This document shows, piece by piece, positions 17,459 to 21,710 of a stretch of 64,000 nt of DNA. The notes beneath the pieces were generated by a model. That model ran no database searches. It saw nothing but the letters and a program-made list of their open reading frames with translations, and had not been told where the DNA came from. How positions within the stretch are numbered: position 1 is the stretch's first letter; every line of letters starts with the position of its first letter. Source of the stretch: Polyangiales bacterium. GTDB taxonomy: Bacteria > Myxococcota_A > Polyangia > Polyangiales > Polyangiaceae. The stretch covers positions 96,001 to 160,000 of the forward strand of contig JBBRLQ010000007.1 in the NCBI GenBank assembly GCA_038231275.1, in the 5' to 3' direction. Made by a program: the position numbers and the translations under genes.

Positions 17459-18070
17459 ATGGCGGCGGGAGTAGTGGCGGCGACTGCGGCGGTCGTGGCG
17501 ATGCAGGCCGCGCGCGCCGTGCAGGAGCAGAACGTCCGCATGGCCGGCGACGTTTGGGCCGCGTTCGCCGCGACGCTCGGCTTCTCACCGCCCGGCACGA
17601 CCGCGAGCGCGCTCCCGTTCCTCGCGGGCGTGCTCGACGGCGTTCGCTTCCGCCTCCGCGTCGTGCGCGACGAGCAAGGCTGGGCGCATACGCAGGCCTT
17701 CGCCGACGCCATGGTCCCGATCAGCTGCGAGGTCGGCGTCTACTCGAGCCCGGCGGGGTTTCTCGACTGGGTGAAGGCGCACTTCGAGGAGGACATCGAG
17801 ATCGGCGACGCTCCGTTCGATCGCGCGTTCGTCATTCGCGCGCGTCCGCGCGAGGCCGCGGCGTCGCTGCTCCAGCCCGAGGTCCGCGCGCTCACGACGG
17901 CGTTCCTCGGCCACGCGCTCGCTGGCCTCACGTACAAGGAGGGCGTCATCGCGCTCCAGTGGCGCGGCGTCGAACGCGATCCTGCGGTGCTCGAGCACGC
18001 GCTCCGCTTGGTCTCCCTCGTCGGGAGGTGGGCACCCTCCGAGGGCGGCTACAGGACGATGAGTTTCTAG
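17459..18070 (+). CDS. hypothetical protein
   Basis: Contains DIEIGDAPFDRAFVI; fills the gap between genes. Confidence 0.6.
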   Translation: MAAGVVAATAAVVAMQAARAVQEQNVRMAGDVWAAFAATLGFSPPGTTASALPFLAGVLDGVRFRLRVVRDEQGWAHTQAFADAMVPISCEVGVYSSPAGFLDWVKAHFEEDIEIGDAPFDRAFVIRARPREAAASLLQPEVRALTTAFLGHALAGLTYKEGVIALQWRGVERDPAVLEHALRLVSLVGRWAPSEGGYRTMSF

Positions 18071-20127
18071 GTCAGGTTGGAGCCGCTGTCGTCGTCGTCG
18101 CTCGTCATCTGCGGGCGGACGGTGAGGCCGCCCGGCTCGATCGACAGCGCGCTGCCTTGCTCGGGCTGCGAGTCGGGCGGCGGCGGGAAGCTCGACGTGC
18201 TCGTGCCGAGCGCGTTCTTGTGATCGAGGAAGCGCAGCGTGCCGGGGCCGCTCGTGCGCTCCAGCACCCCGCGGAGATCGCCAGGGAGAGGAGCTTCCAC
18301 GATCAGGCGGTGGCCGTGCCCCGGGTGATCGATCTCGATGCGCACGCAGTGGAGGAAGGCGCGGTCGAGGCCGTTCTTCTCTTCGAAGAAGCGGTTGGTC
18401 GGGCCGTGGCCGTACCGATCGTCGCCCAACACCGGGTGGCCGATCGCGGCGAGGTGGCGGCGGACCTGATGGGTCCTACCTTGCTCGGGGATGACGCGCA
18501 GCACGCTGTGACCGCTCGCGACCGCGAGGCGCCGGTAGCGCGTGCGCGCGGGGAACAGCTTCCCCTCCTCGCGCAGCTCGCGGGTGATGGCGCCCTTCGA
18601 CGGCGTGACGCCGCGCGCGGCGGCGACGTAGATCCTGCGCGAGGCGGCGGAGGCGAGCGCAGCGGCCCATTTGGCGACGAGCTCGGGCTGCCGCGCGAAG
18701 ATCACGAGCCCGCTCGTTCCGATGTCGATGCGGTGGATGGGGACCGCATCGGCGGCCCCGGGGAGACGCCGCACGCGCGACTGGAGAGAGCTCGCGTACT
18801 CCGCCTGCGGCGCCGTCGGTTCGTGCGGGCCCTTCTCGACGATCAAGATCTCTTCGTCCTCGAAGGCGACGCGCGGCGTGGGGATCGAGCCGCGCCGGAG
18901 GATGGCGACCGTCTCCACCTCGTCGGTGAGCGGGATCATGTCGAGCGGCCGCAGCGACGCCGTGGAGTACCCGAGGCGCGAGAGGTGATCGAGATCGCGC
19001 GCGAGCGTGTCGGGATCGCAGGAGACGTACGCGAGCGCGGTGAGCTCGAAGCGCGCGATCCACTCGCGCGCCAGCGCGCTCATTCCGCGGCGTGGTGGGT
19101 TCACGACGGCGGCGTCGAACTTCTCGCCGCGCTCGAGCATTGCGCGCAGCGCCGTCGCCGCGTCGGCGTGATCGGCGGTGAGCCGGACGTCTTGCGATCG
19201 GGCTGCGGCGCGCGCCTGCTCGACCGCCGGACCGAACGACTCGACGAGGTGCACGTCGGCCCCGGCCGCGCCCAGCGCCAACGCGATCGCGCCGCTCCCG
19301 CCGTACAGATCGAGGACGCGCACGCGCTTGCCGTGCAGGACCGCCTTCGCCACGCCCGTGAGCTCGATCAGCATCTGGTGGATGCGCTCGGCCTGCCCGC
19401 GGTGGGCTTGCACGAAGGAGCCGAACGTCGCGAGGTGAATCGACGCGCCGAGCTTGTCGGGGAGCGACGCCTCGCCGAAGAGATGAGACGTCTCGCTGCC
19501 GAGGATCTGCGGCGCCTCGCCGTCGTGGAAGTTGACCGCCACGCCCGCGATCTCCGGCATCTCGCCGATGAGCGCCTGCGCGGCGGCTTTCAGCGCCGCC
19601 AAATCTGGGACGCGCGCGCGGTGGACGACGAGCGTGACGAGCACGCGCGCGCCGTCGTCGCCTCGGACCTCACGAAGGTCCACGGCACGCAGCGCGCCGC
19701 CCCCGCTCGGATCGAACGGCGCGAGCAGTCCATCGCCCGCCGTCGTCGTCCGCGCGCGGAGCGACTCGGCGACGCGCGCGAGGACGGGGGAGAGGACCCG
19801 GCACGTCGGAATGTCGACGACCTGATGACCGCCGCCCTTCGCGAAGAGCCCGACCCTCGGTCCCGACGCGACGATGAGCTTCGCGCGCGTGCGGTAGCCG
19901 ACGATTGGCGACGCGGCCGCGACGGGCTCGGTGTACACGAGCTCGAGGGACGAGTAGCGCGCGACGGATTGAACGACGCGACCGCGCTTGAGCGCGAGCT
20001 GCTCTCCGTACGGGAGCGCGATGATCGGACATCCACCGCAGCGGTCGGCGTGCGAACACTCGACACGCTGGGTGTCCAGTGGCGCAGGCGGACCGAGCTC
20101 GGGCGCGGGGACCATCGGTAGGCTCAT
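18067..20127 (-). CDS. fusion of an RNA m5U methyltransferase (RlmC/RlmD family) and an RluA-family pseudouridine synthase
   Basis: CSHADRCGGC, DLYGGSG, VNPPRRG, YVSCDPDTLARD; then HRIDIGTSG, GRTHQVRRHL, GHPVLGDDRYG in one frame. Confidence 0.9.
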   Translation of the reverse strand: MSLPMVPAPELGPPAPLDTQRVECSHADRCGGCPIIALPYGEQLALKRGRVVQSVARYSSLELVYTEPVAAASPIVGYRTRAKLIVASGPRVGLFAKGGGHQVVDIPTCRVLSPVLARVAESLRARTTTAGDGLLAPFDPSGGGALRAVDLREVRGDDGARVLVTLVVHRARVPDLAALKAAAQALIGEMPEIAGVAVNFHDGEAPQILGSETSHLFGEASLPDKLGASIHLATFGSFVQAHRGQAERIHQMLIELTGVAKAVLHGKRVRVLDLYGGSGAIALALGAAGADVHLVESFGPAVEQARAAARSQDVRLTADHADAATALRAMLERGEKFDAAVVNPPRRGMSALAREWIARFELTALAYVSCDPDTLARDLDHLSRLGYSTASLRPLDMIPLTDEVETVAILRRGSIPTPRVAFEDEEILIVEKGPHEPTAPQAEYASSLQSRVRRLPGAADAVPIHRIDIGTSGLVIFARQPELVAKWAAALASAASRRIYVAAARGVTPSKGAITRELREEGKLFPARTRYRRLAVASGHSVLRVIPEQGRTHQVRRHLAAIGHPVLGDDRYGHGPTNRFFEEKNGLDRAFLHCVRIEIDHPGHGHRLIVEAPLPGDLRGVLERTSGPGTLRFLDHKNALGTSTSSFPPPPDSQPEQGSALSIEPGGLTVRPQMTSDDDDSGSNLT

Positions 20128-20207
20128 CGTATACCTTCGTCGCCTCGGACGAAGAAAGCGTACGCGCATCCCCACACGAACCTACCCGACGAACGTGTTT
20201 GGCGAGG

Positions 20208-21710
20208 ATGGCGCGCGGGCGATACTCTGAAGCAGTGTCGGAGGCCGTGCCCAGAATCGGACTCCCGTCTCCGGGAGACGTGATCGACGAGAAATACCGG
20301 ATCATCCGGTCGATCGGCGAGGGCGGCATGGGGCACGTGTTCGAGGCCGCGCACCTGCGGATGGGACAACGCGTCGCCATCAAGGTCCTGAAGCCCGCCG
20401 CCAGCCAGGCTCCCGAGGTCCTCTCGCGGTTCGATCGCGAGGCCCGCGCGGCGGGGCGCCTTCGCGGGGCTCACAGCGCGCGCGTCATCGACGTCGACAT
20501 CACGCCCGATCACCTGCCGTACATGGTCATGGAATACCTCGACGGGCACGATCTCCAGACGGAGCTCGAGCAGCGTCAGGTGTTCCCGGTCCTCGAGGCG
20601 ATCGACTACGTGCTGCAGGCGTGCGCCGGAATGGCCGAGGCCCACGACATCGGCATTGTGCACCGCGACCTCAAGCCGTCGAACCTCTTTTTGTGCGACG
20701 ACGGGGACCGGCGCATCGTCAAGATCCTCGATTTCGGGATCTCCAAGATCCTCGACGAGGCCTCGAAGCTCACCTCGACCGAGCTGACCGTCGGGACGCC
20801 GCTCTACATGTCGCCCGAGCAGGTTCGGTCGGCGCGCACCGTCGACGCGCGGACCGACATCTGGGCCCTCAGCATCATCCTGTTCGAGCTCTTGACGGGC
20901 AGGCCGCCCTGGGTCGGCAGCGGGCCGTCGGTGGCCGCCGCGATCGTGACCGATCCTCCTCCGCCGCTCTCCGAGTTTCGAGGAGACATTCCGCCAGGGC
21001 TCGAAGCCGTGCTCGTGAAGGCGCTCGCCAAGTCCGCCGGTGAGCGGTACCTCGACGTGTGCTCGTTCGCCGACGCGCTCCTGCCGTACTGCGCGAGCCC
21101 CACCAGCCTCGGCCGCGCGTCGCTGGAGAGCGCGCGTCGCGCCGCGCAGAGCGGGGTGTCGCTGATCAGGATCGGCAACCGATCGCCGGAGCTCGCGAAC
21201 GCTCCGACCGTGCTGAGCATGCCGAACGGCGGGGTCGCGGAGGTGTCTTCGGTGCCCGCGAGCGTTTCCGAGCGGAAAGCGGCCGTCACGACCGCCGGAT
21301 GGACGACGGGTTCTGGGCGGCGCTCGGCCCAGCGCACGCGCCTCCTCTTCGGCACCGCGCTCCTCGTCGCGGTCTCCGCCGTGGCCGTCGCGGTCTCCGT
21401 TGTCGTGCTCGCTCGGAAAGCTCCGCGGCTCTCGGCGACGGCGGAAGCTTCGAGCCTCGCGGCCGTACTGCCGCCGCCGCAGCCGATCGCCGAGCCGCCG
21501 CCGCTCGCGTCGTCCTCGCTGCCCATCGCGCTCGCGTTGCCCGCGCCCGTGCCGTCGGGTCCATCGTCCGCGAAGCCTGGTGTGGGAACGACGCGGCCGG
21601 TTCGACCCCCGCCCACGCGCGCGCCGACAGGGATCGCGTCGAGCCCTCCTCCGGTCCTGTATCCGCCCCCGTCGACGTCGCAGAAGCCCCCTCCGCTCTA
21701 CATGCCGTGA
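20208..21710 (+). CDS. membrane-anchored Ser/Thr protein kinase
   Basis: GEGGMG, VAIK, HRDLKPSN, DFG, GTPLYMSPEQ; TM segment and Pro-rich tail; start uncertain (20208 or 20235). Confidence 0.93.
   Translation: MARGRYSEAVSEAVPRIGLPSPGDVIDEKYRIIRSIGEGGMGHVFEAAHLRMGQRVAIKVLKPAASQAPEVLSRFDREARAAGRLRGAHSARVIDVDITPDHLPYMVMEYLDGHDLQTELEQRQVFPVLEAIDYVLQACAGMAEAHDIGIVHRDLKPSNLFLCDDGDRRIVKILDFGISKILDEASKLTSTELTVGTPLYMSPEQVRSARTVDARTDIWALSIILFELLTGRPPWVGSGPSVAAAIVTDPPPPLSEFRGDIPPGLEAVLVKALAKSAGERYLDVCSFADALLPYCASPTSLGRASLESARRAAQSGVSLIRIGNRSPELANAPTVLSMPNGGVAEVSSVPASVSERKAAVTTAGWTTGSGRRSAQRTRLLFGTALLVAVSAVAVAVSVVVLARKAPRLSATAEASSLAAVLPPPQPIAEPPPLASSSLPIALALPAPVPSGPSSAKPGVGTTRPVRPPPTRAPTGIASSPPPVLYPPPSTSQKPPPLYMP

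Follow-up and report, generated by a model that had tools for sequence, protein, structure and literature searches.

A conserved methyltransferase–pseudouridine synthase fusion in Polyangiales, with a synthase active site that is degenerate in many family members

The stretch of DNA considered here (the window) comprises 64,000 nucleotides from the metagenome-assembled genome (MAG) of a Polyangiales bacterium (assembly GCA_038231275.1, contig JBBRLQ010000007.1, positions 96,001 to 160,000). It contains, at 18067..20127 on the minus strand, a gene in which an iron-sulfur (Fe-S), RumA-type 5-methyluridine (m5U) methyltransferase is joined to an RluA-family pseudouridine synthase domain. The fusion is found uninterrupted in hundreds of independent assemblies, and across this family the methyltransferase residues are almost always intact, while the synthase site has degenerated in more than half of the representatives. 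We read the protein as a rigid two-domain enzyme in which the methyltransferase would be the conserved activity and the synthase domain a docking module, with a probably bifunctional copy in the window and hairpin 35 of 23S rRNA as the leading candidate substrate; to this reading as a whole we assign a probability of about 0.6.

The fused gene and its two domains

The minus-strand open reading frame (ORF) listed for the window runs without interruption over 18067..20175 (702 residues from a GTG), and translation from the ATG at 20127 gives 686 residues with no internal stops; a start at the GTG, at 20175, would lengthen the protein by 16 residues. The G+C content of the window is about 70%. 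A first-pass annotation, made from the sequence alone, had described one uninterrupted ORF with Fe-S cysteine, VNPPRRG, YVSC and HRID motifs and neither a TRAM nor an S4 domain. The ORF listing and the translation bear out the frame, all of the motifs were located by translation (CSHADRCGGC at residues 24-33, C109, NPPR at 343-346 within VNPPRRG, YVSC with C370, and HRID at 465-468), and Pfam and NCBIfam searches found no TRAM or S4 domain in the protein. The features referred to below are the following, with the methyltransferase listed before the synthase and all coordinates given for the window:

18067..20127, minus strand: fusion gene, 686 codons plus a stop at 18067-18069
19363..20070, minus strand: RumA-type central domain, residues ~20-255 (Fe-S cysteines and uracil pocket; alignment with E. 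coli enzymes)
20029-20058, minus strand: [4Fe-4S] cysteines C24, C30 and C33 (alignment to RumA)
19801-19803, minus strand: fourth Fe-S cysteine, C109 (alignment to RumA)
18892..19362, minus strand: Rossmann methyltransferase domain dependent on S-adenosylmethionine (SAM), residues 256-412 (Pfam, NCBIfam, alignment)
19288-19314, minus strand: methyltransferase motif I, LDLYGGSGA
19090-19101, minus strand: motif IV, NPPR
19018-19020, minus strand: nucleophile C370
18913-18915, minus strand: general base E405
18250..18876, minus strand: S4-less RluA-family pseudouridine synthase domain, residues 418-626 (Pfam, NCBIfam, alignment, Foldseek)
18724-18735, minus strand: HRID with catalytic D468
18628-18630, minus strand: conserved tyrosine Y500
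18451-18480, minus strand: motif III, GRTHQVRRHL
18070..18249, minus strand: C-terminal tail, residues 627-686 (AlphaFold 2 confidence, 40-sequence alignment)

Residues 20-412 correspond to a TRAM-less, Fe-S, RumA-type m5U methyltransferase. Pfam places PF05958 (tRNA/rRNA U5-methyltransferase) at 258-411 with 30.8 bits against a cut-off of 23. The E. coli comparison enzymes were taken from the annotated K-12 record and aligned with the fusion protein. In this alignment the Fe-S ligands C24/C30/C33/C109 match RumA C81/C87/C90/C162 and RlmC C3/C11/C14/C87, the uracil-pocket residues F238/Q240 match RumA F263/Q265, and the SAM-fold residues, the motif I glycines G277/G279 and the acidic E296 behind strand 2, match RumA G296/G298 and E315, with C370 at the RumA nucleophile C389 and E405 at the RumA base E424. 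The four-cysteine ligand set of the RumA and RlmC types is present and aligned, and binding of a [4Fe-4S] cluster is predicted. Motif IV (NPPR) is identical to RlmC N307-R310, while RlmD has DPAR and TrmA DPPR at this place; the first-pass annotation had correctly stated that E. coli RlmC lacks TRAM and likewise carries NPPR. The RlmC model gives the best NCBIfam score (167 bits, end to end over residues 23-412), with all RlmC equivalog models below their cut-offs (NF002910, 167.4 against 558; NF002909, 142.2 against 553; TIGR02085, 79.3 against 429.5). The RlmD model TIGR00479 reaches 151.4 against 183.55 and aligns residues 21-405 from model position 55, past its TRAM part, and none of the 19 listed NCBIfam families with a curated cut-off is reached by the protein. 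Among solved structures, RlmCD is closest by sequence (E 5e-30), and the best Foldseek match of the AlphaFold 2 model is the S. pneumoniae RlmCD structure with the U747 loop (5zq0, E 1.5e-33); the Foldseek matches to the first half are RlmCD, RumA, archaeal RumA-like enzymes and TrmA.

The synthase half matches PF00849 (RluA/RsuA-type) at 427-561 with 70.6 bits against 26.8. Its residues D468, R466, Y500, R551, H553, Q554 and R556 align with RluA D64, R62, Y96, R160, H162, Q163 and R165, and the catalytic D468 also with TruC D54. The RluA-subfamily model TIGR00005 gives 119 bits against 192.7 over residues 418-623, starting from model position 73, and falls below its cut-off because the S4 part is missing. 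The equivalog models for RluA (NF007543, 47.5 against 286) and TruC (NF008321, 78 against 328, with its C-terminal part alone aligned) are not reached. Foldseek matches this half to RluA (2i82, target template-modelling score 0.79), RluC and RluD. Scored against a profile of the fused-family synthase domains, TruC-like proteins of the phylum, including the one on contig C37 of the same genome, reach 155-186 bits, compared with 119 for E. coli TruC, 119 for RluC, 108 for RluD and 87 for RluA. The backbone of the synthase-domain tree is unresolved, RluA does not join the fused domains in it, and the parent subfamily cannot be named from the tree. Near residue 520 (window about 18560-18580) the fused domain is missing some 14 residues that form a loop in each of E. 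coli RluA, TruC, RluC and RluD, and motif I reads KGPHEP, compared with KPxG in the E. coli enzymes; judged from these residues, the mode of RNA binding may be altered.

By analogy with the aligned enzymes, the Fe-S RumA-type half would act on a flipped-out uridine: Cys370 would attack C6, a methyl group from SAM would be added at C5, and Glu405 would take the C5 proton. The C-terminal half would isomerise a uridine through Asp468. Neither half bears a TRAM or S4 appendage, and the synthase domain would sit where an S4 domain otherwise does. The tail that follows consists of a short conserved helix (LRFLDHKNALG; LRFLxxKxALG), a proline-rich low-complexity stretch and an acidic end. The predicted local distance difference test (pLDDT) of the AlphaFold 2 model falls below 50 at 648-651 and 653-686, which predicts disorder, and in the 40-sequence alignment the tail is common to the closest sequences only.

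The two domains adjoin without a linker. AlphaFold 2, run with a 90-sequence alignment, gives a mean pLDDT of 91.8 and a predicted template-modelling score (pTM) of 0.90 for the whole chain, with disorder confined to residues 1-11 and from 648 onwards; these values point to a fixed arrangement of the two domains as one predicted rigid body. No chain spanning both halves is among the Foldseek matches listed. Homologue searches returned the same architecture from hundreds of independent assemblies. In a collection clustered at 90% identity, 1083 homologues were found among 8000 candidates scored, and the best 120 of these are 673-736 residues long, share 67-100% identity with the query and align over at least 96% of it. 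The assemblies behind the listed homologues are from NCBI, JGI, ENA and Logan, and nearly every entry carries a methyltransferase together with PF00849; those that are named belong to MAGs of Polyangiaceae, Labilithrix or "Deltaproteobacteria". Public annotation labels them in unspecific terms ("pseudouridine synthase", "methyltransferase", "RsmD family RNA methyltransferase" and, at JGI, "23S rRNA (uracil1939-C5)-methyltransferase"). An exhaustive search of representatives at 50% identity gave 49,164 matches at E<=1e-3 and 537 at E<=1e-30; among the best 150, most are 560-800 residues long and match in one stretch over query residues ~20-625, with identity down to 37%.

Within an even sample of 201 genomes of the phylum, a single match spanning both domains was present in 17, among the matches listed. 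Ten of these belong to the 16 sampled genomes of the window's own family and the rest to four further families, two more of the 201 have partial matches, and one has the gene split over two contigs. Searches for single-domain homologues returned no stand-alone relative of either half; the matches were fragments from short contigs or fusions of somewhat reduced length. Two pairs of entries (P0122 with P0278, and P0194 with P0276) consist of a methyltransferase-only and a synthase-only piece and may be frameshifted or truly split fusions. A locus search with a 10-sequence profile gave 72 methyltransferase-only loci, mostly from Clostridia, and 8 fused loci; it was dominated by one methyltransferase pattern and its view of taxonomy is partial. 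All 12 methyltransferase-only loci that were examined have an N-terminal extension of TRAM length.

Fate of the synthase site across the family

In a representative set of 103 members of at least 560 residues, the methyltransferase residues (PPR, C370 and E405) are intact in 101 and the four Fe-S cysteines in 94, with the N-terminus absent in 6 of the remaining sequences. D468 is present in 65 of the 103, and the full synthase set (D468, R466, Y/F500 and R556) in 44, so that the site is lost in 59. Among all 338 members of at least 560 residues, C370 is kept in 337, E405 in 336 and D468 in 291. An alignment of 40 diverse members has the same pattern, with invariant methyltransferase catalytic and Fe-S residues and a variable HRxD, Y500 and motif III; the synthase fold residues G473, G568, R589 and H593 (the last two in the segment LDRAFLH) are nearly invariant. 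The synthase site is retained as follows, by identity to the query:

Identity 65% or more: synthase site intact in 142/145, methyltransferase set intact in 145/145
Identity 55-65%: synthase site 59/94, methyltransferase set 94/94
Identity 45-55%: synthase site 28/48, methyltransferase set 46/48
Identity below 45%: synthase site 12/50, methyltransferase set 50/50

On a quick tree of the methyltransferase domain (72 rows), 18 intact and 30 decayed members require at least 12 changes of state, and since intact members are among the deepest branches, repeated loss of the synthase site is the simple reading. The conserved and selected activity of the family would therefore appear, from the residues kept, to be m5U formation by the methyltransferase, while the synthase domain persists as a folded module regardless of catalytic ability. 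Its general role is probably to dock or remodel the RNA substrate of the methyltransferase, as far as patterns of conservation can tell. The possibility that one of the domains is inactive, which the first-pass annotation had set against its own proposal, applies to the many relatives with a degenerate synthase site but not to the window protein. Both sites are intact in that protein and are kept in nearly all of its closest relatives (the first line of the list above), and for this reason it is probably bifunctional, making both m5U and pseudouridine on one RNA region.

The process has gone further in other families of the phylum, where apparent stand-alone TRAM-less methyltransferases carry a C-terminal extension of about 130-175 residues. 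This extension holds a remnant of about 130 residues that matches the family's synthase-domain profile (E 1e-11 to 1e-19). In the alignment, internal deletions have removed motif I, the helix after motif II and the last hairpin, and the remnant has no HRxD and no motif III but keeps GHPxAG...RFFxEKAGLxRPFxH. Of the 201 sampled genomes, 11, belonging to three families, have the minimised form:

Loci L099, L101-L104, L106-L108 and L124-L134, in other genomes of the phylum: minimised form with motif IV NPAR or NPSR, compared with NPPR in the window protein

In a careful methyltransferase tree (31 rows) the fusion clade has support of 99/98, and the minimised clade is nested within it as sister to a full-length member (96/87). 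AlphaFold 2 predicts the minimised form to be well folded (pLDDT 95.5, pTM 0.93), with a mean pLDDT of 89 or more in each 10-residue block of the remnant. The top 50 Foldseek matches of this model are methyltransferases only, with no synthase-fold match among them.

Candidate substrate and competing explanations

The MAG (9.28 Mb in 164 contigs, 94% complete) has two PF05958 genes, the fusion and a 455-residue frame on contig C2. This paralogue is extended at its N-terminus, where its alignment to the RlmD model begins at model position 16, within the TRAM part, and RlmD is its best-scoring model (177 bits). TrmFO clears its cut-off (518 bits against 428.65), which accounts for tRNA U54, so that U54 and U1939 are plausibly covered by TrmFO and the RlmD-like paralogue. 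The nine PF00849 genes are a TruC-like, a RluD-like and a RluB-like gene, four further RluA-subfamily genes, the fusion and a second fusion, and none of the nine reaches the RluA equivalog cut-off; the stand-alone TruC-like gene on C37 scores 193.6 bits. A DNA query with the E. coli 23S segment located hairpin 35 in four relatives, of which three belong to the same family; the loop reads GUUGAAAA in these, identical to E. coli G745-U746-U747-GAAAA. The inventory and this loop together make U747 and U746 a reasonable candidate pair. The substrate is probably 23S rRNA, and hairpin 35 is a possible and currently the leading candidate within it.

The second fusion lies outside the window, on contig C8 at 253052-254989 of the minus strand (locus L007, 280-2217, minus strand), and has the opposite order. 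The synthase, which is of the RluA family and has HQRLD intact (TIGR00005, 131.8 bits), comes first, and the SAM methyltransferase that forms the C-terminal part resembles RlmI / Rlm(C2499) / RlmK (about 120-131 bits). Of the 31 related genomes searched, at least 11 have a match over almost its whole length (query ~5-18 to ~582-586), and this second conserved fusion suggests that joining synthases to methyltransferases is a habit of the lineage.

Several points weigh against the reading given at the outset. The MAG contains no 23S rRNA gene, and the hairpin-35 sequence is that of relatives; the activity of either site is predicted from its residues; and the docking role is argued from the retention of the domain. 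No equivalog cut-off is reached for RlmC, RlmD, RluA or TruC, and the careful tree has RlmC in a polytomy and sets E. coli RlmD and the C2 paralogue apart from a group supported at 84/89. The RlmCD specificity residues F145, Q162 and N249 are L94, L112 and P206 in the fusion. The remnant in the minimised clade is identified by sequence profiles, since Foldseek listed only methyltransferases. Finally, RumA paralogues shift targets, so that the TRAM-bearing paralogue could cover both classical sites and leave a new one to the fusion.

This last point leads to the alternative that survives best, namely a bifunctional enzyme acting on sites without an E. coli counterpart (a lineage-specific rRNA pair, or a tRNA site such as the T-arm), while the classical 23S sites would fall to the paralogue. 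Changes of target have precedents: B. subtilis YefA/RlmCD makes both m5U747 and m5U1939 (PMC3241648, excerpt), YfjO/RlmS makes m5U620, equivalent to E. coli U576 (bioRxiv 10.64898/2026.04.17.719261, excerpt), and a P. abyssi RumA-like enzyme acts on tRNA U54, going by the title of PDB 2jjq. The fusion clade is separate and occurs under myxobacterial-type names only among the named matches listed, and its synthase domain is closest to TruC-like tRNA enzymes. However, TrmFO and the stand-alone TruC-like gene imply that U54 and psi65 are already covered, and nothing positive favours any particular alternative site. We regard this alternative as possible, though not as the expected outcome.

The proposal of the first-pass annotation was more specific, with RlmC and RluA in one chain acting on the adjacent U747 (m5U) and U746 (pseudouridine). 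It is consistent with the missing TRAM domain, the NPPR shared with E. coli RlmC and the top rank of the RlmC model, with the likely assignment of U54 and U1939 to other enzymes in a genome without an RluA equivalog, and with the G745-U746-U747 and following GAAAA kept in the relatives; moreover, if the synthase is a docking module, both domains should bind the same region. In the separate phylogenies of the two domains, the fusion clade is distinct, RlmC falls in a polytomy and the synthase tree lacks a resolved backbone. The quick tree places E. coli RlmC apart from the fusion clade. We set this placement aside, given the polytomy in the careful tree and the better score of the constrained one: holding RlmC with the fusion clade gave a tree 24.3 log-likelihood units above the quick free tree, and the joint clade is not rejected by the approximately unbiased test (p-AU 0.868). 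E. coli RlmC, the one characterised RlmC in the trees, sits on a long branch.

Against this proposal, the scores stay far under the equivalog cut-offs for both RlmC and RluA, so that the equation of the two halves with these enzymes is not supported, and the identification of the synthase half as RluA gives way to a TruC-like affinity, in the family profile and in the NCBIfam scores alike. There is also no shared sequence signature of U747 specificity. F145, Q162 and N249 confer this specificity in RlmCD and are not conserved in E. coli RlmC (PMC6235398, excerpt), which leaves no signature to use; as a test of U747 specificity the RlmCD residues were set aside as uninformative. In addition, each of the two enzyme types remodels the whole loop in its solved complexes, and for that reason both sites could hardly act on adjacent bases simultaneously. 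The part of the proposal that stands is a real fusion with both sites intact in this copy; RlmC and RluA orthology is not established, and the combined claim is unlikely in this form.

A broader version treats the synthase as a built-in recognition and remodelling domain that replaces TRAM and whose chemistry is optional, with the active copies installing coupled pseudouridine and m5U on neighbours in hairpin 35. Chemistry that became optional after the fusion would explain a dozen or more losses in which the fold was never discarded, and we offer the full version as speculation that is rather improbable in all its parts. It is improbable to a greater degree that the synthase half of the window protein, too, is a mere RNA-binding or chaperone module and the protein a monofunctional m5U methyltransferase: 59 of the 103 representatives lost the site yet kept the domain, and the atypical motif I and the missing loop would fit, but HRxD, Y500 and RTHQVR are intact and their retention in the closest relatives has the signature of selection on catalysis. 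An artefact, with two adjacent genes of this 164-contig MAG joined by mistake during sequencing or assembly, might be suspected from split-looking entries (427 and 225 residues on a 4745-base contig, 361 and 295 residues on a 19714-base contig) but is effectively refuted by uninterrupted copies from several sources, megabase-size contigs included, by the single two-domain matches listed for the phylum sample, and by the lack of an inter-domain spacer in what AlphaFold 2 packs as one body.

Surroundings, significance and comparison with known systems

The end of the fusion gene overlaps by 4 bases with a convergent 203-residue ORF without a Pfam family (17459-18070, plus strand), and a divergent Ser/Thr protein kinase gene adjoins it on the other side (20079-21710, plus strand). 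The other neighbours, in convergent and divergent orientations, encode a PEGA/TPR protein, an NAD_binding_4 reductase, a DUF4911 protein and family-less ORFs. No RNA-related operon context was seen around the gene among the neighbourhood ORFs and their Pfam families.

Both halves belong to known enzyme superfamilies. RlmKL is the nearest precedent for fused rRNA modification enzymes, and no published description of an m5U methyltransferase/pseudouridine synthase fusion was found in the literature searched, which was limited. Of greater interest is that the synthase has decayed repeatedly, and in one clade been minimised, beside an ever-intact methyltransferase. The family is a natural experiment on the long-debated non-catalytic role of pseudouridine synthases in RNA chaperoning or docking, and if the synthase is indeed a built-in recognition domain, the series from active to dead to minimised forms would serve to separate catalytic from chaperone roles. 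If both sites work, the protein could be used to test directly how modifications at neighbouring rRNA positions are coordinated. If the coupling at hairpin 35 is true, a region of macrolide and ketolide binding would be modified in a single binding event, by the first natural enzyme to hard-wire two different modifications of adjacent rRNA residues. For annotation, the family carries a warning, as the synthase domain of most such proteins would, by its active-site residues, be catalytically dead.

Among the characterised enzymes, E. coli RlmC (RumB, m5U747) resembles the fusion in being TRAM-less and in its four Fe-S cysteines, NPPR, catalytic cysteine and glutamate base, but it is a stand-alone protein of 375 residues without a synthase domain, and the fusion scores 167 against the 558 that its model demands. 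RlmCD (YefA), the best structure match, has an RNA-binding R127 that aligns to the invariant R79 of the fusion; in contrast to the fusion it has a TRAM domain, and its F159 sits at the fusion's C109. E. coli RluA and TruC share with the fused synthase the fold (2i82), the catalytic aspartate, HRxD, the tyrosine, motif III and the lack of S4, whereas the fused domain lacks the 14-residue loop, has a methyltransferase attached and is nearer to the TruC-like clade than to RluA.

Inactive or dispensable modification enzymes that serve as ribosome assembly factors offer a parallel of another kind, since there too the fold is kept for RNA binding, but in separate mitochondrial proteins. The Foldseek matches include chains of trypanosomatid mitoribosome assembly intermediates (6yxx, 7aoi, 7am2), which we take to be inactive synthase homologues. 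The activity of METTL15 is dispensable for its role in biogenesis, according to the title of PMC11197891. Closest in design is E. coli RlmKL (YcbY), which combines two 23S rRNA modification activities in one chain of about 700 residues and arose from genes that are separate in other bacteria (PMC3367195, excerpt). RlmKL joins two methyltransferases, both described as active, whereas the fusion joins a methyltransferase to an isomerase half that decays in many lineages.

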